Source of the DNA: a virus
Taxonomy: Duplodnaviria > Heunggongvirae > Uroviricota > Caudoviricetes
Length of the DNA: 9,102 bases
Direction: 5' to 3' (one strand)
IMG/VR virus record: IMGVR_UViG_2547132281_000003
Location: 1-9,102 of that record
Part shown: piece by piece, positions 1-9,102 of the stretch
Layout of the letters: each line of letters starts with the position of its first letter
Numbering within the stretch: position 1 is the stretch's first letter
Program-made: the position numbers and the translations under genes
The notes under the pieces: model-generated
The model's database searches: none
Seen by the model: the letters and a program-made list of their open reading frames with translations, nothing else
Told to the model about the DNA's origin: nothing

Positions 1-648
1 ATGAAACACCGGACCTGGATCACTGAAGCTTTACGTCTTCACTTTGAAGAACATTTACCCCGGGTTGTGGCCGGGCGTCGCCTGGGTGTACCAAAATCAA
101 CAGTTTGTAGTATGTTCGTGCGCTTTCGGAGAGCTGGCCTTTCGTGGCCTTTGCCCGCAGGCATGTCGGAGCAGGAACTTGATGCCTGCCTTTACGGACA
201 ATTTTCCACGGTACCAGTCGTACGTCCTGAAAGCACCGTTATATCCGAAGCCCCCGTGGTAAAAAAACGTCCCCGGCGGCCCAACTTCCCTTATGAGTTT
301 AAAATCGCCTTAGTGGAGCAGTCACTGCAGCCCGGAGCCTGTGTGGCGCAGATCGCCCGGGAAAACGGAATCAACGATAACCTGCTCTTCAACTGGCGCC
401 ATCAATACCGGAAAGGTGGCCTGCTGCCTTCCGGAAAAAATATGCCGGCACTGCTTCCCGTGACGTTAACGCCGGAGCCGGATAATAAAATCCCGGCCCC
501 CGCACAGGAACCAGAGCAGATAAATACACCGTCCGACAGTCTGTGTTGTGAGCTGGTTCTGCCGGCCGGAACTCTCAGGCTTAAAGGTAAACTGACGCCG
601 GCGTTATTACAGACACTTATCCGCGAAATAAAAGGGAGCAGCCACTGA
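1..648 (+). CDS. tnpA: IS66-family accessory protein TnpA (orf1) with an extra ~85-aa N-terminal helix-turn-helix-like region
   Basis: The C-terminal ~130 aa (PNFPYEFKIALVEQSL...ENGINDNLLFNWRHQYRKG) aligns with the orf1 of copy 2 at 2726..3127. Its TGA stop (646-648) overlaps the tnpB ATG (648-650). The N-terminal segment (GRRLGVPKSTVCSMFVRFRRAGLSWPLP) has no counterpart in copy 2. Confidence 0.75.
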   Translation: MKHRTWITEALRLHFEEHLPRVVAGRRLGVPKSTVCSMFVRFRRAGLSWPLPAGMSEQELDACLYGQFSTVPVVRPESTVISEAPVVKKRPRRPNFPYEFKIALVEQSLQPGACVAQIARENGINDNLLFNWRHQYRKGGLLPSGKNMPALLPVTLTPEPDNKIPAPAQEPEQINTPSDSLCCELVLPAGTLRLKGKLTPALLQTLIREIKGSSH

Positions 649-995
649 TGATATCTCTCCCTGCAGGTTCGCGTATCTGGCTGGTTGCAGGTATCACCGA
701 TATGCGAAATGGCTTTAACGGCCTGGCATCAAAAGTTCAGAACGTCCTGAAGGATGACCCGTTCTCCGGACACCTGTTCATCTTCCGCGGACGCCGGGGT
801 GACCAGATAAAAGTGTTGTGGGCTGACAGTGACGGACTGTGCCTCTTCACCAAACGCCTGGAGCGGGGCCGCTTCGTCTGGCCAGTCACCCGTGACGGCA
901 AGGTGCACCTTACTCCGGCTCAGTTATCCATGCTTCTTGAAGGTATCAACTGGAAGCACCCGAAACGAACGGAACGCGCTGGAATCCGCATATAA
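648..995 (+). CDS. tnpB: IS66-family TnpB (orf2), 115 aa
   Basis: Typical IS66 orf2 sequence ([16 protein letters not shown]...LFIFRGRRGDQIKVLW...KRLERGRF). It is highly similar to the 115-aa ORF at 3124..3471 and is start/stop coupled to tnpA. Confidence 0.9.
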   Translation: MISLPAGSRIWLVAGITDMRNGFNGLASKVQNVLKDDPFSGHLFIFRGRRGDQIKVLWADSDGLCLFTKRLERGRFVWPVTRDGKVHLTPAQLSMLLEGINWKHPKRTERAGIRI

Positions 996-1014
996 CCCGT
1001 TGTAAAGTGAGGAT

Positions 1015-2586
1015 ATGGACACCTCACTTGCTCATGAGAACGCCCGCCTGCGGGCACTGTTGCAGACGCAACAGGACACCATCCGCCAGATGGCTGAATA
1101 CAACCGCCTGCTCTCACAGCGGGTGGCGGCTTATGCTTCCGAAATCAACCGGCTGAAGGCGCTGGTTGCGAAACTGCAGCGCATGCAGTTCGGTAAAAGC
1201 TCAGAAAAACTTCGTGCAAAAACCGAACGGCAGATACAGGAAGCACAGGAGCGAATCAGCGCACTTCAGGAAGAAATGGCGGAAACGCTGGGTGAGCAAT
1301 ATGACCCGGTACTGCCATCCGCCCTGCGCCAGTCTTCAGCCCGTAAACCGTTACCGGCCTCACTTCCCCGTGAAACCCGGGTTATCCGGCCGGAAGAGGA
1401 ATGCTGTCCTGCCTGTGGTGGTGAACTCAGTTCTCTGGGATGTGATGTGTCAGAGCAACTGGAGCTTATCAGCAGCGCCTTTAAGGTTATCGAAACACAA
1501 CGTCCGAAACAGGCCTGTTGCCGGTGCGACCATATCGTGCAGGCACCAGTACCTTCAAAACCCATTGCACGCAGTTATGCCGGAGCGGGGCTTCTGGCCC
1601 ATGTTGTCACCGGGAAATATGCAGACCATCTGCCGTTATACCGCCAGTCAGAAATATACCGTCGTCAGGGAGTGGAGCTGAGCCGTGCCACACTGGGGCG
1701 CTGGACAGGTGCTGTTGCTGAACTGCTGGAGCCGCTGTATGACGTCCTGCGCCAGTATGTGCTGATGCCCGGTAAAGTCCATGCTGATGATATCCCCGTC
1801 CCGGTCCAGGAGCCGGGCAGCGGTAAAACCCGGACAGCCCGGCTGTGGGTCTACGTCCGTGATGACCGTAACGCCGGTTCACAGATGCCCCCGGCGGTCT
1901 GGTTCGCGTACAGTCCGGACCGGAAAGGTATCCATCCACAAAATCACCTGGCCGGTTACAGCGGTGTGCTTCAGGCCGATGCTTACGGTGGTTACCGGGC
2001 GTTATACGAATCCGGCAGAATAACGGAAGCCGCGTGTATGGCTCATGCCCGGAGAAAAATCCACGATGTGCATGCAAGAGCGCCCACCGACATCACCACG
2101 GAAGCCCTGCAGCGTATCGGTGAACTGTATGCCATCGAGGCAGAGGTCCGGGGCTGTTCAGCAGAACAGCGTCTGGCGGCAAGAAAAGCCAGAGCCGCGC
2201 CACTGATGCAGTCACTGTATGACTGGATACAGCAACAGATGAAAACACTGTCGCGTCACTCAGATACGGCAAAAGCGTTCGCATACCTGCTGAAACAGTG
2301 GGATGCACTGAACGTGTACTGCAGTAATGGCTGGGTGGAAATCGACAACAACATCGCAGAGAACGCCTTACGGGGAGTGGCCGTAGGCCGGAAAAACTGG
2401 ATGTTCGCGGGTTCCGACAGCGGTGGTGAACATGCGGCGGTGTTGTACTCGCTGATCGGCACATGCCGTCTGAACAATGTGGAGCCAGAAAAGTGGCTGC
2501 GTTACGTCATTGAACATATCCAGGACTGGCCGGCAAACCGGGTACGCGATCTGTTGCCCTGGAAAGTTGATCTGAGCTCTCAGTAA
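1015..2586 (+). CDS. tnpC: IS66-family DDE transposase TnpC (orf3), 523 aa, ISEc8-like
   Basis: N-terminal leucine-zipper-like coiled coil, CxxC...CxxC zinc finger (CCPACGG...CCRCDH), and DDE-region motifs [14 protein letters not shown] and [16 protein letters not shown] Shine-Dalgarno sits at 1007-1011. Confidence 0.92.
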
Positions 2587-2590
2587 ATAT

Positions 2591-2616
2591 CAATACGGTT
2601 CTGACGAGTCGCTTAC
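2591..2616. repeat. Right terminal inverted repeat of IS66 copy 1
   Basis: CAATACGGTTCTGACGAGTCGCTTAC closely matches the right end of copy 2 (5071..5096) and ends with CGCTTAC. Confidence 0.7.
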
Positions 2617-2646
2617 GATTATCAAGCTCAATTATAACTTTTTCCA

Positions 2647-2654
2647 TTTTCCAC
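2647..2654. repeat. Target-site duplication (left copy), TTTTCCAC
   Basis: The 8 bp immediately left of the GTAAGCG terminus at 2655 are identical to the 8 bp immediately right of the CGCTTAC terminus (5097..5104). An 8-bp duplication is characteristic of the IS66 family. Confidence 0.85.
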
Positions 2655-2680
2655 GTAAGCGTACAGCCTGAACCGTCTGG
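2655..2680. repeat. Left terminal inverted repeat of IS66 copy 2
   Basis: Starts GTAAGCGT; it pairs with the reverse complement of 5071..5096 (GTAAGCGTGCAGCAAGAACCGT...) with a few mismatches. Confidence 0.75.
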
Positions 2681-2746
2681 TCAGAATCTGACAAATTAGA
2701 CAAAGTGGTGTCCACCAAATAAGTAGTGGGAACCAAAGTGTCAGAT

Positions 2747-3127
2747 ATGCAGAAAAATGTGACTCCCGGCAGGCGAAAAGGCTGCCCTAATTATCCTCCC
2801 GAATTTAAACAGCAGCTCGTTGCTGCCTCCTGTGAACCCGGGATATCCATCTCAAAACTTGCTCTTGAAAATGGCATTAACGCCAATCTGTTGTTCAAAT
2901 GGCGACAACAATGGCGCGAGGGAAAGCTGCTATTACCTTCTTCAGAGAGCCCCCAGCTACTTCCTGTGACTCTCGATGCAGCTGCCGAACAGCCAGAATC
3001 GCTCGCAGAGGACCCGGAAACCCTCAGTATCAGCTGTGAGGTAACGTTCCGGCACGGGACGCTCCGCTTCAATGGCAATGTCAGCGAAAAGCTCCTGACT
3101 CTGCTGATACAGGAACTGAAGCGATGA
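2747..3127 (+). CDS. tnpA: IS66-family TnpA (orf1); the ORF track begins at GTG 2726, the first ATG is at 2747
   Basis: Conserved orf1 core (YPPEFKQQLVAASCEPGISISKLALENGINANLLFKWRQQWREGK) parallels the copy 1 orf1. The stop and the tnpB start overlap as ATGA (3124-3127). Confidence 0.8.
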   Translation: MQKNVTPGRRKGCPNYPPEFKQQLVAASCEPGISISKLALENGINANLLFKWRQQWREGKLLLPSSESPQLLPVTLDAAAEQPESLAEDPETLSISCEVTFRHGTLRFNGNVSEKLLTLLIQELKR

Positions 3128-3471
3128 TCCCGTTACCTTCCGGGACCAAAATTTGGCTGGTTGCCGGTATCACCGATATGAGAAATGGCTTCAACGGCCT
3201 GGCTGCGAAAGTACAAACGGCGCTGAAAGACGATCCCATGTCCGGCCATGTTTTCATTTTCCGGGGCCGCAGCGGCAGTCAGGTTAAACTGCTGTGGTCC
3301 ACCGGTGACGGACTGTGCCTCCTGACCAAACGGCTGGAGCGTGGGCGCTTCGCCTGGCCGTCAGCCCGTGATGGCAAAGTGTTCCTTACGCAGGCGCAGC
3401 TGGCGATGCTGCTGGAAGGTATCGACTGGCGACAGCCCAAGCGGTTGCTGACCTCCCTGACCATGCTGTAA
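3124..3471 (+). CDS. tnpB: IS66-family TnpB (orf2), 115 aa
   Basis: Same length as the copy 1 TnpB and similar over most of it ([18 protein letters not shown]...TKRLERGRF), with its ATG in the ATGA overlap with the tnpA stop. Confidence 0.9.
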
Positions 3472-3496
3472 ATCTCTTTATCCTGGTTGTCACAGA

Positions 3497-3522
3497 ATAA
3501 GCCCGGTAAAATACGGGCTTAT
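3497..3522 (+). promoter_or_regulatory. Stem-loop overlapping the tnpC start codon of IS copy 2 (possible translational control)
   Basis: ATAAGCCCG (3497-3505) and CGGGCTTAT (3514-3522) are perfect 9-bp inverted arms around an 8-nt loop. The second arm contains the AT of the tnpC ATG (3521-3523), and no obvious Shine-Dalgarno precedes it. Confidence 0.4.
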
Positions 3523-5059
3523 GAACGACATCTCTTCTGACGACATCTTCCTGCTGAAACAGCGCCTGGCCGAACAGGAAGCGCTGATCCACGCCCTGCA
3601 GGAAAAGCTGAGCAACCGGGAGCGCGAAATAGACCATCTGCAGGCGCAGCTGGATAAACTCCGCCGGATGAACTTCGGCAGTCGTTCCGAAAAAGTCTCC
3701 CGCCGTATCGCACAAATGGAAGCCGATCTGAACCGGCTTCAGAAAGAGAGCGATACGCTGACTGGTAGGGTGTATGACCCGGCTGTACAGCGTCCGTTGC
3801 GTCAGACCCGCACCCGTAAGCCGTTCCCTGAATCACTACCCCGTGACGAAAAGCGACTGTTGCCTGCGGCGCCGTGCTGCCCGAACTGCGGCGGTTCACT
3901 GAGCTATCTGGGCGAGGATACCGCCGAACAGCTGGAGTTGATGCGTAGTGCCTTCCGGGTTATCCGGACGGTACGGGAAAAACATGCCTGTACTCAGTGC
4001 GATGCCATCGTGCAGGCACCTGCACCTTCGCGGCCCATCGAGCGGGGTATCGCCGGACCGGGGCTGCTGGCCCGCGTGCTGACCTCGAAGTATGCAGAGC
4101 ACACCCCGCTGTATCGCCAGTCAGAAATATACGGCCGGCAAGGTGTGGAGCTGAGCCGTTCACTGCTGTCGGGCTGGGTGGATGCATGCTGCCGGCTGCT
4201 GTCTCCGCTGGAAGAGGCGCTTCATGGCTATGTCATGACTGACGGCAAACTCCATGCCGATGATACCCCGGTCCAGGTACTGCTGCCGGGTAATAAGAAG
4301 ACGAAGACCGGGCGGTTGTGGGCGTATGTTCGTGATGACCGCAATGCCGGGTCAGCGTTGGCACCTGCAGTGTGGTTCGCTTACAGCCCGGACAGAAAAG
4401 GCATCCATCCGCAGACTCATCTTGCCTGCTTCAGCGGTGTGCTGCAAGCGGATGCGTACGCCGGGTTCAACGAGCTGTATCGCAATGGTGGGATAACGGA
4501 AGCTGCCTGCTGGGCTCATGCCCGCCGAAAGATCCACGATGTGCACGTCCGCATCCCGTCAGCACTGACGGAAGAAGCCCTGGAGCAGATCGGTCAGTTG
4601 TACGCCATAGAGGCGGATATAAGGGGAATGCCGGCAGAGCAGCGGCTTGCTGAACGTCAGCGAAAAACGAAACCGCTGTTGAAATCCCTGGAAAGCTGGT
4701 TGCGTGAAAAGATGAAAACCCTGTCGCGACACTCAGAACTGGCGAAAGCGTTCGCATACGCCCTGAACCAGTGGCCGGCGCTGACGTACTATGCAGATGA
4801 TGGCTGGGCTGAGGCGGACAATAACATCGCTGAAAATGCGTTGCGGATGGTCAGTCTGGGCCGCAAAAACTACCTGTTCTTCGGTTCGGATCATGGAGGA
4901 GAGCGGGGAGCGCTGCTGTACAGCCTGATCGGGACGTGCAAACTGAACGGAGTGGAGCCAGAAAGCTACCTCCGCTATGTCCTTGACGTCATAGCCGACT
5001 GGCCGATAAACCGGGTCGGCGAACTGCTCCCCTGGCGCGTAGCACTGCCGACTGAATAA
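3521..5059 (+). CDS. tnpC: IS66-family DDE transposase TnpC (orf3), 512 aa
   Basis: Coiled-coil N-terminus, zinc finger (CCPNCGG...CTQCD), and motifs [14 protein letters not shown] and [10 protein letters not shown]. It is collinear with the copy 1 TnpC but clearly divergent from it. Confidence 0.92.
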
Positions 5060-5070
5060 CACATCCCCGT

Positions 5071-5096
5071 CAATACGGTTCTTGCTGCACGCTTAC
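5071..5096. repeat. Right terminal inverted repeat of IS66 copy 2
   Basis: CAATACGGTTCTTGCTGCACGCTTAC; ends with CGCTTAC and is followed directly by the TTTTCCAC duplication. Confidence 0.75.
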
Positions 5097-5104
5097 TTTT
5101 CCAC
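5097..5104. repeat. Target-site duplication (right copy), TTTTCCAC
   Basis: Identical to 2647..2654. Confidence 0.85.
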
Positions 5105-5197
5105 CAACCTGTCCAACTTTAAAAAGTTACTTTTAAGTATATGATAAACATAGTTTATTAAACGTGATCCACTACTTTTAATGAAGAATATTCCCCA

Positions 5198-5233
5198 AAA
5201 CAGAAAGCCCCTCGACTGAGGGGCTTTCTGTTT
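5198..5233 (-). terminator. Intrinsic (potentially bidirectional) terminator hairpin immediately downstream of ogr
   Basis: AAACAGAAAGCCCCTC-GACT-GAGGGGCTTTCTGTTT is a perfect 16-bp inverted repeat with a 4-nt loop and a GC-rich stem, flanked by A-rich and T-rich runs. It lies 4 nt beyond the ogr stop. Confidence 0.75.
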
Positions 5234-5237
5234 GTAA

Positions 5238-5456
5238 TTACATCCACATAATTTGCTGCCCTGACGGCAACGGGTGCGGCCTCACGGCGTGGACTTCTCC
5301 CGGCTTCACGATGTATCGCTGTACCGACTCATAAGTGATGAACGTGGCGCTGCAATTCACGTTCTGGCACTGGTGATAACGCTCTTTTGTCGTGTCAGTG
5401 ATATAGCGACTTGTACGCGCATGTGCGGCATGCTGGCATAAAGGACAATGAAACAT
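5238..5456 (-). CDS. ogr: Ogr/Delta-family zinc-finger late-gene transcriptional activator, 72 aa
   Basis: MFHCPLCQHAAHARTSRYITDTTKERYHQCQNVNCSATF... matches phage P2 Ogr as I remember it, with the four zinc-binding Cys. A GGAAGAGG Shine-Dalgarno precedes the ATG at 5456. The 99-aa ORF in the track (start 5537) is an upstream in-frame extension. Confidence 0.93.
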   Translation of the reverse strand: MFHCPLCQHAAHARTSRYITDTTKERYHQCQNVNCSATFITYESVQRYIVKPGEVHAVRPHPLPSGQQIMWM

Positions 5457-5536
5457 CGCGAGCACCTCTTCCGGTTTTGTTAATGGTGCCATTTTATTTA
5501 ATTTATCCTTATAAAACAAACAGATAAAACAAAGCA
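5457..5536 (-). promoter_or_regulatory. Probable ogr promoter and ribosome-binding region (D-ogr intergenic)
   Basis: AT-rich 80-bp spacer between the D stop and the ogr start, with TTGTTT...TATAAG-like elements on the minus strand. This is a by-eye assignment only. Confidence 0.35.
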
Positions 5537-6700
5537 TTAATCATCATCTTCTGTTTCGTACTCCACATCAGAAAGCCTGACCTCAAGCTCTAAGGACGTC
5601 GTGAAGCCGCTATTATTCAGAAAATGTGTCACCTTAGTGATTGTCCAGTCCTGCTCGTCTATGACGCGCTTAAAGCCTGACACTCTGACCGGTGTTTCCG
5701 TGTAAATATCAGCACGACCAGTGGCAAGGCTGATGGAGAACTCCGCAACGCCCCGTTGCAGTTTATCCCACTTCGCCTGAGCGGCGCGCATGGCCTGCGC
5801 TTTCGTGGCATATACCGTAGTCAGGGCAAAAACGTTGTCAGCCTCACCGGCCATGTATTCACCTTCGCGCGCTTCCGGTACTTTTGGCGCTTTCTTCTGC
5901 GTGACCGGTTTTGCTTTCGGGTGCTCCAGTGCGCGCAGGTGTTTTTCTTTCTTTTTGCGTTTCAGTTTTACCTTCTGCTTTTGTGGTTTCGGGTCTTTGG
6001 TGTGTAACCACTTTGCCGTTACGCCGGTATAGGCTCCACGGTCAGCAATCGCAAAATGATGGCGGTCGCCGTCGCTGCGGGTTATGGTGACCTGCGGGAT
6101 TTTTTTACCGCTGGCCGTCACCCCCTGCCCCGCTTTGAGAAACAACAGTTTTCCCATTTTTACCGAGACCTCACCGCCGTTGCGTTCTGCAAGACGGGTC
6201 AGGAATTTCGCATCAGACTCCTGCGACTGGTCGATGTGCGGGATTTTAATTCCGGCCAGTGACGGAGCGACACTGGCTTCCAGCCTGTTACGGGAGGCTA
6301 TCGCCTCAACAATCGCACCGAGCGTGGTGTCATGCCAGGAGCCTTCCCGGCGGGAATTGAGCGTCCCGCGAAAATCTGCACTCCGGGCGCGGATGGTGAC
6401 CACATCCGGAGCGCCCCGGTGTTCAACCTCATCAACGGTAAATTTCCCTTTGCATACCAGGGCAAAACCTTTCCAGCCGATATAAACCGTCAGGACAGCG
6501 CCACGAACCGGCAGCCCGACCTGCCCGTCGGCATCGTTCAGTTCAATATCAAGCTGGTCAGCCTCAAAGCCCCGGTTATCCGTCAGGGTCATACTCATCA
6601 GACGGTCGCTGATATTGCCGGTAATATCCCTGCTGTCGAGCATCAGCATGTAATCCGGCGTCAGCGTACTGCCTGCATCAAATGTCAGCGCATCCAGCAT
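5537..6700 (-). CDS. D: P2 gpD-like tail protein (late control gene D), 387 aa, apparently full length
   Basis: Length and sequence match P2 gpD as I remember it (MLDALTFDAGSTLTPDYMLMLDSRDITGNISDRLMSMTL...). Its start overlaps the stop of the upstream U-like ORF (TAATG). Confidence 0.92.
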   Translation of the reverse strand: MLDALTFDAGSTLTPDYMLMLDSRDITGNISDRLMSMTLTDNRGFEADQLDIELNDADGQVGLPVRGAVLTVYIGWKGFALVCKGKFTVDEVEHRGAPDVVTIRARSADFRGTLNSRREGSWHDTTLGAIVEAIASRNRLEASVAPSLAGIKIPHIDQSQESDAKFLTRLAERNGGEVSVKMGKLLFLKAGQGVTASGKKIPQVTITRSDGDRHHFAIADRGAYTGVTAKWLHTKDPKPQKQKVKLKRKKKEKHLRALEHPKAKPVTQKKAPKVPEAREGEYMAGEADNVFALTTVYATKAQAMRAAQAKWDKLQRGVAEFSISLATGRADIYTETPVRVSGFKRVIDEQDWTITKVTHFLNNSGFTTSLELEVRLSDVEYETEDDD

Positions 6701-7047
6701 TATCCCGCCCCCGTCATACCCGTGAATCTGGTCGCCATACTGCCAGCCTTACCGATGAGCGATTCCGCCTGTTTACCGATATCGCCATAAAGCGCGGCCA
6801 GTGATTCATCAACGCGGGTGAGTGACAGCGTAAAATCAATTTTCCGGGGTGTGCCGTCTGCAAAGAAAATACTCCCTGTTTCACTCACCCTGCTGATGAC
6901 ATACATGCCGTAAATCATGCCGGTGCCATCCAGCAACGGCCACGCCCGTCCCTCCTCTGCCATCAGCCTGAGCGTGGTCATCGTCAGCTTGCCGCCGGTC
7001 AGTTCGGGATAAAGCACACCGGCCAGCGTCATGTTTTCCTCACCCAC
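6700..7047 (-). CDS. U: P2 gpU-like tail protein, probably N-terminally truncated (possible pseudogene)
   Basis: The C-terminal ~110 aa (TLAGVLYPELTGGKLTMTTLRLMAEEGRAWPLLDGTGMIYG...) resemble gpU. The track start is a GTG at 7047; the first ATG is at 7030-7032. The same frame stays open upstream to a stop at 7108-7110. My recollection is that P2 gpU is about 159 aa, so roughly 25-50 N-terminal residues appear to be missing. Confidence 0.65.
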   Translation of the reverse strand: MGEENMTLAGVLYPELTGGKLTMTTLRLMAEEGRAWPLLDGTGMIYGMYVISRVSETGSIFFADGTPRKIDFTLSLTRVDESLAALYGDIGKQAESLIGKAGSMATRFTGMTGAG

Positions 7048-7637
7048 ACCGAGAAACTGGTAGGCATCCCGTTTGCAGAATATGCCTGCCTCGTGGTCAT
7101 CTGTCCTTTACGGTATTTTTTCCAGTAAAGCGGGGAAATATTGAAAGCACGTGCAGCGCCAGCAACATGACCATAGAGGTGAGCCTGCGCCTCATCCGTA
7201 AACAGCGATTCTTTCTCGCCATGCGCATCCACCCAGGCATCGCTGAGTTCCTCATACATCATGAAAAGCTGCGATGAGATACGGGCGGCAAACTTTTTCA
7301 GCTCCTTGTCATTCATTCCCGGCAGGCGCGCATAGTGGTCACGCTCAGCCAGAACCCCCATCCACAAAAGCCATGCATCACGCTGTTCAACCGGTCGGTT
7401 ATAAAACGCCTCACGTACAGCGCGATTAAACTCAGGAATGAAAACCCATTTTTCACCGGCACGAGCCTTCGGTTTGCAAGGATCACGCAATTCAATAATT
7501 GGTAATTTATTTGCCTTCACCATTTCACTGACAGCTGTCTTTGGCTTCCCTAATAAATCAGCAAATTTATCCACATGAACCGCATCAAGCGGATACTGAA
7601 TCACATAATTTTCAGCGTCCATATATGGTACCCTCAT
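7029..7637 (-). CDS. cox: Cox-like (P2 excisionase / early-promoter repressor family) N-terminal domain fused to a ~100-aa C-terminal extension of unknown origin, 202 aa
   Basis: Residues ~10-97 (YPLDAVHVDKFADLLGKPKTAVSEMVKANKLPIIELRDP...ARAGEKWVFIPEFN...QRDAWLLWMG) parallel P2 Cox (91 aa) as I remember it. Residues ~100-202 have no match I recognise. It is divergent from the C repressor gene, and its TGA overlaps the first ATG of the U fragment as ATGA. Confidence 0.6.
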   Translation of the reverse strand: MRVPYMDAENYVIQYPLDAVHVDKFADLLGKPKTAVSEMVKANKLPIIELRDPCKPKARAGEKWVFIPEFNRAVREAFYNRPVEQRDAWLLWMGVLAERDHYARLPGMNDKELKKFAARISSQLFMMYEELSDAWVDAHGEKESLFTDEAQAHLYGHVAGAARAFNISPLYWKKYRKGQMTTRQAYSANGMPTSFSVWVRKT

Positions 7638-7758
7638 AGGATCCAGCCCTTTCTAAACCACTCAAAACCGTTTAGACGCTGGTTTATTCTCAAATCAATG
7701 GAACCTATATAGGTTCCAGTTTTGAGGGAATTTAGTCCCTATATAGGCACCATGTCAA
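7638..7758. promoter_or_regulatory. Immunity switch region between the divergent cox-like and C genes, with candidate promoters and operators
   Basis: AT-rich 121-bp spacer containing an 18-bp perfect palindrome GGAACCTATATAGGTTCC (7700-7717), a second copy of its CCTATATAGG core (7738-7747), a related CCTCATAGG at the cox start (7632-7640), and a TAAACCA...TGGTTTA inverted pair (7653-7686). Confidence 0.5.
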
Positions 7759-8052
7759 ATGAAATTAAGCGAAAAGATTAAGGCCTTGCGTGAGGCTGAA
7801 GGGCTAAGCCAATCAAAATTCTGTGAAATCATAGAGTTACCGCTAAGCACACTTAAAAAATATGAAGGAGGAAACTTTGAACCCGGTGGCACAGCTTTGC
7901 TAAAAATCACTATGCATCCCACATTCCAAAAATATGCTCTATGGCTTATGACAGATAAAACCGCGCCGGACGCAGGACAAATCGCACCGGCTCTCGCGCA
8001 CATTGGGCCAGAGTCAACAGAGTCCAACCACTCCGCGAAAAGGATTGGCTAA
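7759..8052 (+). CDS. C: P2 C-type immunity repressor (helix-turn-helix), 97 aa
   Basis: LSEKI...LSQ..., the helix-turn-helix region, and the C-terminal ...TPxFxKYxLWxMT...APxxGQIAPALAH... segment match P2 repressor C as I remember it. It lies directly upstream of int, as in P2. Confidence 0.85.
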   Translation: MKLSEKIKALREAEGLSQSKFCEIIELPLSTLKKYEGGNFEPGGTALLKITMHPTFQKYALWLMTDKTAPDAGQIAPALAHIGPESTESNHSAKRIG

Positions 8053-8121
8053 CTCTATATAAAGATTACATTTTCACCATTTGCTACCAAGATGGTGAAT
8101 ACAGCGCCGGAGGGCTTTCTT

Positions 8122-9102
8122 ATGGCAATTAAGAAGCTCGATGATGGTCGCTATGAAGTGGACATTAGACCTCGCGGTCGCGACGGAAAACGCATCCGCA
8201 GGAAATTCGAAAGAAAAGCTGAAGCACTAGCATTTGAGCGATACACAATCGCCAATGCCAGTCAGAAAGAATGGGGAGGCCAGCGAGCAGACCGCCGGAC
8301 TTTGAGTGAGTTGCTGGACATCTGGTGGAAATATCACGGGCAAAACCACGAGCATGGAACAAAAGAGTTTAATCATCTACTCAAAACCATCAGCGGCATA
8401 GGTGATATACCAGTGAGCAGGATGAGCAAAAGGGCTTTGATGGATTATCGTTCCATGCGACTACGTGATGGTATCAGTGCCGCAACGATAAACCGTGACA
8501 TGTACCGATTATCCGGCATGTTCACAAAATTAATTCAATTGGATGAATTTTCCGGGCAACACCCAATTCACGGACTGCCGCCACTGGCGGAGGCCAACCC
8601 TGAAATGACGTTCCTGGAAAAAGCAGAAATCGAAAAACTGTTAAATGTTTTGGCTGGTGATGACTTACTTGTCGCGCTTTTATGTCTGAGCACTGGAGGA
8701 AGATGGACGGAAGTTGCCACGCTAAAACCAGCACAGATTACAAATTGCAGGGTTACCTTCCTGAAAACCAAAAACGGTAAAAAGCGAACCGTGCCGATTT
8801 CTGAGGAACTGGAGAAAAAAGTTAAAGAGGAGGCCAGCGCCAAATTATTCAAAGTTGATTATGAGAAATTTTGCGGGATTTTACGCAGAGTGAAACCTGA
8901 TATACCACCCAATCAGGCAACCCACATCCTGCGGCATACATTCGCAAGCCATTTCATGATGAATGGGGGCAATATAATCGCACTGCAACAGATTCTGGGA
9001 CATGCGAGCATTCAGCAGACGATGGCCTATGCGCACCTTGCGCCTGACTATCTGCAAAATGCCGTCGCTCTGAATCCACTAAAAGGCGGAGTGACGTTAT
9101 AA
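8122..9102 (+). CDS. int: P2-type tyrosine integrase (site-specific recombinase)
   Basis: MAIKKLDDGRYEVDIRP... matches the P2 Int N-terminus as I remember it. The catalytic region has HxLRH and a C-terminal Tyr (ATHILRHTFASHF...QTMAYAHL). A GGAGGG Shine-Dalgarno lies 7 nt upstream of ATG 8122; the track ORF starts 30 nt earlier at 8092. The stop is the last codon of the window. Confidence 0.93.
   Translation: MAIKKLDDGRYEVDIRPRGRDGKRIRRKFERKAEALAFERYTIANASQKEWGGQRADRRTLSELLDIWWKYHGQNHEHGTKEFNHLLKTISGIGDIPVSRMSKRALMDYRSMRLRDGISAATINRDMYRLSGMFTKLIQLDEFSGQHPIHGLPPLAEANPEMTFLEKAEIEKLLNVLAGDDLLVALLCLSTGGRWTEVATLKPAQITNCRVTFLKTKNGKKRTVPISEELEKKVKEEASAKLFKVDYEKFCGILRRVKPDIPPNQATHILRHTFASHFMMNGGNIIALQQILGHASIQQTMAYAHLAPDYLQNAVALNPLKGGVTL

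Follow-up and report, generated by a model that had tools for sequence, protein, structure and literature searches.

The truncated U-like reading frame on the minus strand of the window (the whole stretch of DNA analysed, 9,102 nucleotides) is almost certainly the 3' remnant of a gpU gene, a pseudogene cut by a deletion of about 24 kb, in a cryptic P2-like prophage at the cpxP|fieF site of one ETEC clone (TW14425 and its relatives). The window is 100% identical, over all 9102 bases, to AELE01000001.1 of assembly GCA_000166615.2 (L002); AELE00000000 is ETEC strain TW14425 (Guinea-Bissau, 1996; PMC4309559). The source contig and sister assemblies show what remains at that site of a P2-like prophage of the WPhi/L-413C type, an element of 4.9 kb. 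Its genes, in descending order from 9102 to 5200 along the minus strand, are int and C (leftward), followed by cox, part of gene A, the truncated U, D and ogr (all rightward). This order, int-C-cox-A'-'U-D-ogr, is that of a P2-type prophage without its middle, and int, C, cox, D and ogr are near-identical and collinear with their counterparts in prophage order, as expected of a P2-like remnant. We used the intact 30,996-bp prophage of E. coli PD4 (NZ_CP074007.1), which occupies the same site, as the comparison reference, measured between its att cores. Nucleotide identity over int, C, cox, the 3' part of U, D and ogr is 99.9-100% to PD4 and 98-99% to Yersinia phage L-413C. Replication, cos, capsid and tail functions are lost: 280 bp of A are left, and nothing from A nt 630 to U nt 105. 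The features of the window are as follows.

Positions 1 to 2614, plus strand: ISEc8-like IS66-family element; left end outside the window, target duplication GATTATCA, inserted 33 nt into the cargo gene.
Positions 2655 to 5096, plus strand: ISCro1-like IS66-family element; 8-bp target duplication TTTTCCAC (2647-2654 and 5097-5104).
Positions 5238 to 5537, minus strand: ogr (late-gene activator, zinc finger), an ORF of 99 aa; Pfam Ogr_Delta; annotated in PD4 as 72 aa from an internal start.
Positions 5537 to 6700, minus strand: D (baseplate hub), full length at 387 aa; Pfam Phage_GPD, length as in L-413C and PD4.
Positions 6700 to 7074, minus strand: 'U, the 3' 375 nt of the gpU (tube initiator) gene, codons 36-159 and stop, 5'-truncated; from PD4 identity and Pfam.
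Positions 7030 to 7032, minus strand: earliest in-frame ATG of the truncated U; from the sequence and the ORF list.
Positions 7075 to 7110, minus strand: upper part of the "open U frame", 11 gene A codons read out of frame and the closing TAA, not U; from the junction comparison.
Positions 7075 to 7354, minus strand: A', an internal fragment of replication gene A (nt 350-629 of 2277, codons 117-210), between both deletions.
Positions 7029 to 7637, minus strand: chimeric ORF of 202 aa, made of Cox codons 1-94, A codons 117-210 and 15 U codons out of frame, closed by TGA; from Pfam and the junctions.
Positions 7729 to 7758, minus strand: candidate promoter of sigma-70 type (TTGACA-18-TAAATT), lying upstream of cox at the place expected for the early promoter Pe; from a consensus scan.
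Positions 7759 to 8052, plus strand: immunity repressor C, intact; HTH_3, 100% nucleotide identity to PD4, annotated as C in L-413C.
Positions 8092 to 9102, plus strand: integrase; Pfam Int_N and Phage_integrase; the start used in relatives is at 8122, giving 326 aa, and the window ends at the stop codon.

In the ORF list the U-like frame runs from a GTG at 7047 to 6700 (minus strand, 115 aa), and its earliest in-frame ATG, at 7032-7030, gives a product of 110 aa, both as the original prediction had them. The frame ends in a TAA (6702-6700) that shares one base with the start codon ATG of D (6700-6698), giving TAATG; this 1-nt overlap, likewise noted before, is the same in intact L-413C and PD4. 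Translation bore out that the frame is free of stops upward as far as the TAA at 7110-7108. The further claim, that this upstream open frame encodes U-like sequence, holds for its lower part and fails for its upper part. Nucleotide alignment against the intact relatives ends the U homology at 7074; the U-derived codons above the ATG number only 14 (7033-7074, codons 36-49 of PD4 gpU), and bases 7075-7107 (11 codons, 33 nt) belong to gene A, the replication endonuclease, read out of frame. By our arithmetic, 11 codons lack a stop with a chance of (61/64)^11, about 0.6; since such a run is expected by chance, the open frame alone is no signal and the similarity is what counts. That the top 33 nt are not U was absent from the original prediction, as were the partner breakpoint in gene A and a second deletion from cox to A. 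All 124 of the retained residues (U codons 36-159) are identical to PD4 gpU, in which the ATG at 7032 is the internal Met50.

The alignment and Pfam search that had been proposed as checks on the frame agree with a 5' truncation. In the 135-aa translation of 6703-7107, the Phage_P2_GpU match begins at residue 11 and at profile position 30 of 120 (E=1.4e-31, 109 bits against a cutoff of 27.5), which places the frame in the family; the 124 retained residues cover PF06995 profile positions 31-120 (E=2.7e-31), and the 110-aa product covers 45-120 only. The complete GpU domain (profile 1-120) is absent from the U of the window, which by its sequence is a gene fragment of a Phage_P2_GpU family member and not a complete member. 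The phrog_76 "tail protein" family is also matched (E=1.7e-59). Among the missing N-terminal residues, 8-35 of intact U align with PA0626 159-186, in the tube-initiator domain of this pyocin R2 protein (PDB 6u5b).

With L-413C as well as with the PD4 prophage, BLAST aligned the window in three collinear blocks that meet at 7074|7075 and at about 7355. The blocks and the two junctions between them are listed below.

Positions 5097 to 7074: flank, ogr, D and the 3' part of U, 99.9% identical to PD4.
Positions 7075 to 7354: gene A nt 350-629, 98.6% identical to PD4 (95% to A of L-413C).
Positions 7356 to 9102: cox codons 1-94, C and int, 100% identical to PD4.
Positions 7073 to 7074, no strand: J2 ('U::A'), 2-nt microhomology, TT on the plus strand; breakpoint 7074|7075, give or take 2 nt, from a three-way comparison of the window, PD4 U and PD4 A, with BLAST segments overlapping at 7073-7074.
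Positions 7355 to 7359, no strand: J1 (cox::A'), within a C run; from a comparison of the window, L002, L003, L006, L007, L008, PD4 cox and PD4 A.

With PD4 as a proxy parent (99.9-100% identical in the retained parts and 98.6% in the A fragment), from which the deleted length and cargo could differ, deletion 1 comes to 23,958 bp, from A nt 630 via cos and the late genes to U nt 105, with its junction at 7074|7075, and deletion 2 to 2,100 bp, from the last codon and stop of cox via orf78, B and orf80-83 to A nt 349, with its junction at about 7355. The remnant measures 4,938 bp between the att cores in L003, and 30,996 - 23,958 - 2,100 = 4,938 bp; the difference of 26,058 bp is the sum of both deletions, with nothing else changed. 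A deletion endpoint inside U, marking the late-gene side, had been proposed correctly: U nt 1-105 and the late region upstream are missing, and U nt 106 joins A nt 629. The sequence upstream of 7074 is gene A and not T, which in the intact relatives ends 14 nt above U. An intact tail operon would place T and a late promoter before U and couple U to D; here only the TAATG coupling is left.

On the plus strand, J2 reads ...CATCCCGTTT|GCAGAATATGCC... in the window; the parental sequences are ...CATCCCGTTT|ACCGAT in PD4 U and ...GGGCAATT|GCAGAATATGCC in PD4 A, with TT alone common to both. The C run at J1 has five residues (CCCCC) in the window and TW14425 and four in four other assemblies, which read GCCAGAA|CCCCATCC, A and cox being joined via AA (TT on the coding strand). 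The four-C form is a simple join with 2-nt microhomology, and the extra C in the window and TW14425 brings cox in frame with A'. The resulting 202-aa ORF matches Phage_Cox at residues 15-94 and positions 1-84 of the Phage_GPA profile at residues 111-198; gene calls in the four-C assemblies divide the chimeric region into products of 102 aa and 114 aa. Neither the 202-aa nor the 115-aa ORF has an exact match among recorded products, where only the 110-aa ATG-start product appears. An illegitimate deletion of about 24 kb via the 2-nt microhomology would have joined A nt 629 to U nt 106, with loss of the remainder of A, the lysogenic-conversion region, cos and late genes Q to T. Another deletion, of 2.1 kb and likewise through a 2-nt microhomology, would have joined the end of cox to A nt 350, and attL-int-C-cox::A'::'U-D-ogr-(cargo gene)-attR would be left over. 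The class of mechanism, microhomology-mediated and illegitimate, is suggested by the junctions; the order of the two deletions we can only infer, and separate events or one complex event would both fit.

The ends of the element are those of an integrated prophage. A 47-bp direct repeat bounds the remnant on a single contig in L003 (7769-7815 and 12660-12706), and the same repeat flanks the intact PD4 prophage at cpxP|fieF, as expected of an att repeat. Both copies lie outside the window; L002 has the cpxP-side copy only as an exact match. The classical P2 attP core was absent from every locus with up to 4 errors allowed, and the integrase type here uses a different, 47-bp core. J2 occurs in at least five draft assemblies with near-identical flanks (L002, L003, L006, L007 and L008); besides TW14425 these comprise at least four from other projects (GCA_049978225.1, GCA_003982855.1, GCA_049984705.1 and GCA_049977925.1); the carriers listed are a lower bound, with 16 more similar places. 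The flanks of the carriers are identical at 7929 of 7930 positions (the PD4 flank is 99.6% identical), and this near-identity shows the carriers to be a single clone that goes back to one ancestral series of events. Neither junction was present in 5,426 complete RefSeq E. coli genomes, and the exact 41-nt junction had 0 matches in the GTDB representative genomes, where E. coli has a single representative. The 20-nt junction core also occurs in two metagenome contigs (L010 and L011); these have no megablast homology to the window, and we discarded them as chance 20-mers.

We considered whether the ORF of 110-115 aa might be a genuine short gpU, by an alternative start or as a shorter family variant, and whether the A::U junction might be an assembly artefact, a chimeric contig of a 2010-era draft in which a complete prophage was collapsed. 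To the short gpU we give practically no credence. The exact 110-aa product does appear in 53 gene-collection blocks, including contigs with full tail operons (L004, L005 and L009), but each of these calls has another explanation. In L004, U is full length in the DNA and is split 49+110 by one T lost in a T run, a 1-nt frameshift; in the metagenome scaffold L005, divergence sets in above about codon 17; and the contig L009 ends inside the gene. No naturally 110-aa U was found among the eight carrier contigs listed. The original prediction had asked whether related intact phages have a natural U of about 110 aa, and what they have is a U of 159 aa covering profile positions 1-120, as in PD4 and L-413C. 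A tblastn search of 50,697 phage records with this full-length 159-aa U matched 465 records, at least 80% of the query being held in 260, and the alignment starts at residue 1 or 2 in 29 of 30 records sampled over the whole ranking (hosts from Escherichia to Pseudomonas, Ralstonia and Burkholderia). Above 7074, moreover, the DNA of the window is gene A and not U. A misassembly is likewise extremely improbable, even though TW14425 is an early draft, the C run of five versus four at J1 resembles a homopolymer error, and over-collapse of P2-like prophages is a known fault of assemblies (E. coli W paper, PMC3032704). The identical junction recurs in the other projects and similar places given above, the copies differ in their adjoining IS content (L003 has no IS, and L006 has an ISEc8-like element elsewhere and in the opposite orientation), and L003 holds both att cores around the 4.9-kb element on one contig. 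The same junction in differing IS contexts makes misassembly very unlikely.

It is also very unlikely that the remnant is kept because it is functional, either as an immunity and regulatory cassette (C, int, cox and ogr) or because truncated gpU with gpD poisons superinfecting P2-like phages at the stage of tail assembly. In favour of a function, four genes (int, C, ogr and D) are intact, the 110-aa frame has a plausible translation start in its ATGA overlap and GAGG-N5-ATG, and between the Pe-like promoter and D our scan found no strong terminator-like site on the minus strand. Against this, all carriers belong to one clone and a live prophage matches the retained DNA at 99.9-100% identity, so that the intactness reflects youth rather than selection. 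The late promoter is gone, and from P2 biology the remaining promoter would be repressed by the intact C. PADLOC gave no match for the 110-aa or the 202-aa product, and the remnant is absent from the complete genomes searched. In the most specific form of this idea, the 110-aa tube initiator would be translated by termination-reinitiation at ATGA on Pe read-through and would, together with intact gpD, act as a dominant-negative tail poison against superinfecting P2-like phages. We hold this form to be highly improbable; if it were true, a decayed prophage would be an accidental defence element.

The reading of 'U as a pseudogene left by the deletion therefore stands, because it lacks codons 1-35 (part of the conserved GpU domain), the late promoter and all partner tail genes but D. 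Nothing that we observed counts directly against this reading. No gene for tube, sheath, tape measure, wedge or capsid is present in the remnant. In P2 a late promoter normally serves FI-FII-E-T-U-D, and that promoter was lost with the deletion. The sole remaining candidate placed to read into A'-'U-D is the Pe-like site; the consensus scan gave 3 sites against 3.5 expected in shuffles, and the call is therefore made on position. As judged from P2 biology, this site is probably repressed by the intact C. With the late promoter deleted and Pe presumably repressed, 'U would be transcriptionally silent; Pe read-through with reinitiation at ATGA could nevertheless, from the sequence, yield a 110-aa fragment. 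The ATG (7030-7032) and the TGA (7029-7031) that closes the upstream fusion ORF run together as ATGA, with GAGG 5 nt upstream of the ATG, an accident owing to which gene callers annotate a 110-aa GpU product in public assemblies. A 2026 cryo-EM preprint identifies P2 gpU as the tube initiator: on the trimeric gpD hub, six copies start the tail tube and connect the hub with the inner tube (bioRxiv 10.64898/2026.09.14.750843). A scan of the whole window at Rfam gathering thresholds found no RNA family.

Remnants of this kind are known. The cyaR site holds an ogr-D' remnant in K-12 and P2*B in E. coli B, and E. coli W carries a P2-like prophage, Wphi1, at cpxP-fieF (PMC3032704). Like the K-12 and B remnants, which we compared by description, the element here is a cryptic P2-like prophage of which internal deletion has left a few kb: ogr and the D region survive next to attR, and the deletion ends within a tail gene. 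The genes of the K-12 remnant go by the names ogrK/yegZ. Unlike the K-12 and B remnants, this one lies at cpxP|fieF and has a different immunity and int type; D is intact and the cut is in U, the int-C-cox end is kept too, and a 280-bp piece of gene A stands between two deletions. The intact prophages PD4 and Wphi1 share its attachment site. In the intact relatives U has all of its 159 aa, and a further 26 kb or so is present (orf78 to A, cargo, cos, and Q to T); L-413C is without the 213-aa cargo gene between ogr and attP. Our literature search found no description of this cpxP|fieF remnant. It is an object of a well-known kind at another known P2-family site, with a different cut point and both regulatory ends kept; it is a young cryptic prophage, a product of ordinary prophage decay, and holds no new kind of gene.

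The finding has little importance beyond annotation. The 110-aa Phage_P2_GpU product and the 202-aa (or 102 + 114 aa) Cox/GPA products are deletion artefacts to be flagged as pseudogenes, and should not count as tail proteins or as signs of an inducible prophage. The remnant offers a base-resolved case of P2-type decay, with two deletions that appear microhomology-mediated and both att-proximal regulatory ends kept, and the A::U junction is a clonal marker for one ETEC lineage. A plasmid collection matches the window in the IS66 part only (1-5096), so the remnant is not plasmid-borne in that collection. The insertion point of the ISCro1-like element is the ATG of the prophage cargo gene downstream of ogr, and the ISEc8-like element lies in the same gene.

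A cargo gene of 213 aa sits between the ogr terminator and attR in this prophage lineage, whereas the related intact Yersinia phage L-413C is without it. The encoded protein gave no match in Pfam or PHROG; it matched the PADLOC profile PD-T4-10_B (E=1.3e-34, profile positions 139-346 of 353), and the gene may have an anti-phage role, at an ogr-att cargo site. Intact copies are found in a sister assembly that carries the same remnant (L003) and in E. coli PD4, whose intact prophage occupies the same cpxP|fieF site (loci L012 and L013). The copy in the window is interrupted by two insertion sequences.

Window 1-2614: ISEc8-like IS66-family element, within the first 33 nt of the cargo gene
Window 2655-5096: ISCro1-like IS66-family element, at the cargo gene ATG
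Window 2615-2654 and 5097-5237: cargo gene, interrupted copy
L003 11936-12577; PD4 L012 782-1423: cargo gene, intact copies
L003 7769-7815 and 12660-12706; PD4 L013 6703-6749 and L012 653-699: copies of the 47-bp att core
PD4 L013 1-324 (record 14779-16323): RNA-directed DNA polymerase gene, adjoining gene A in the intact prophage

The two elements are different members of the IS66 family with insertion points no more than 40 bp apart, and each has a separate 8-bp target duplication (GATTATCA; TTTTCCAC); their insertions are independent events. Sister assemblies either lack both elements or carry an IS66 element at another place. The ISEc8-ISCro1 neighbourhood is also found on many E. coli plasmids. 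The RNA-directed DNA polymerase gene of PD4, which falls within the stretch deleted from the window remnant, may be cargo of the retron type in the P2 hotspot next to A.

As att core, this integrase type uses the 47-bp direct repeat GACACCATCCCTGTCTTCCCCCACATGATGTGGGGGTTTTTTTTATC, which bears no relation to the classical P2 core. The repeat contains a hairpin with a run of T after it, shortly downstream of cpxP; together these look like a terminator. The source contig of the window (L002) has an exact match to the core on the cpxP side only.

At the cox::A' junction (window 7355-7359), the C run comprises five residues in the window and TW14425 versus four in four other carriers. Four C yield a 102-aa Cox-plus-tail product and a separate 114-aa A' ORF, and five a single in-frame Cox::A' fusion of 202 aa; the extra C could have arisen by genuine slippage or could be a homopolymer miscall of the 454 era. 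A U gene divided into 49 and 110 aa by the loss of one T from a TTT run was observed in an otherwise complete P2-like prophage (L004 9855-10333; GCA_900448885.1). Unless the missing T is a sequencing error, this is a second and independent way for a U pseudogene to arise. The 110-aa product of the split gene is the same as that of the window.
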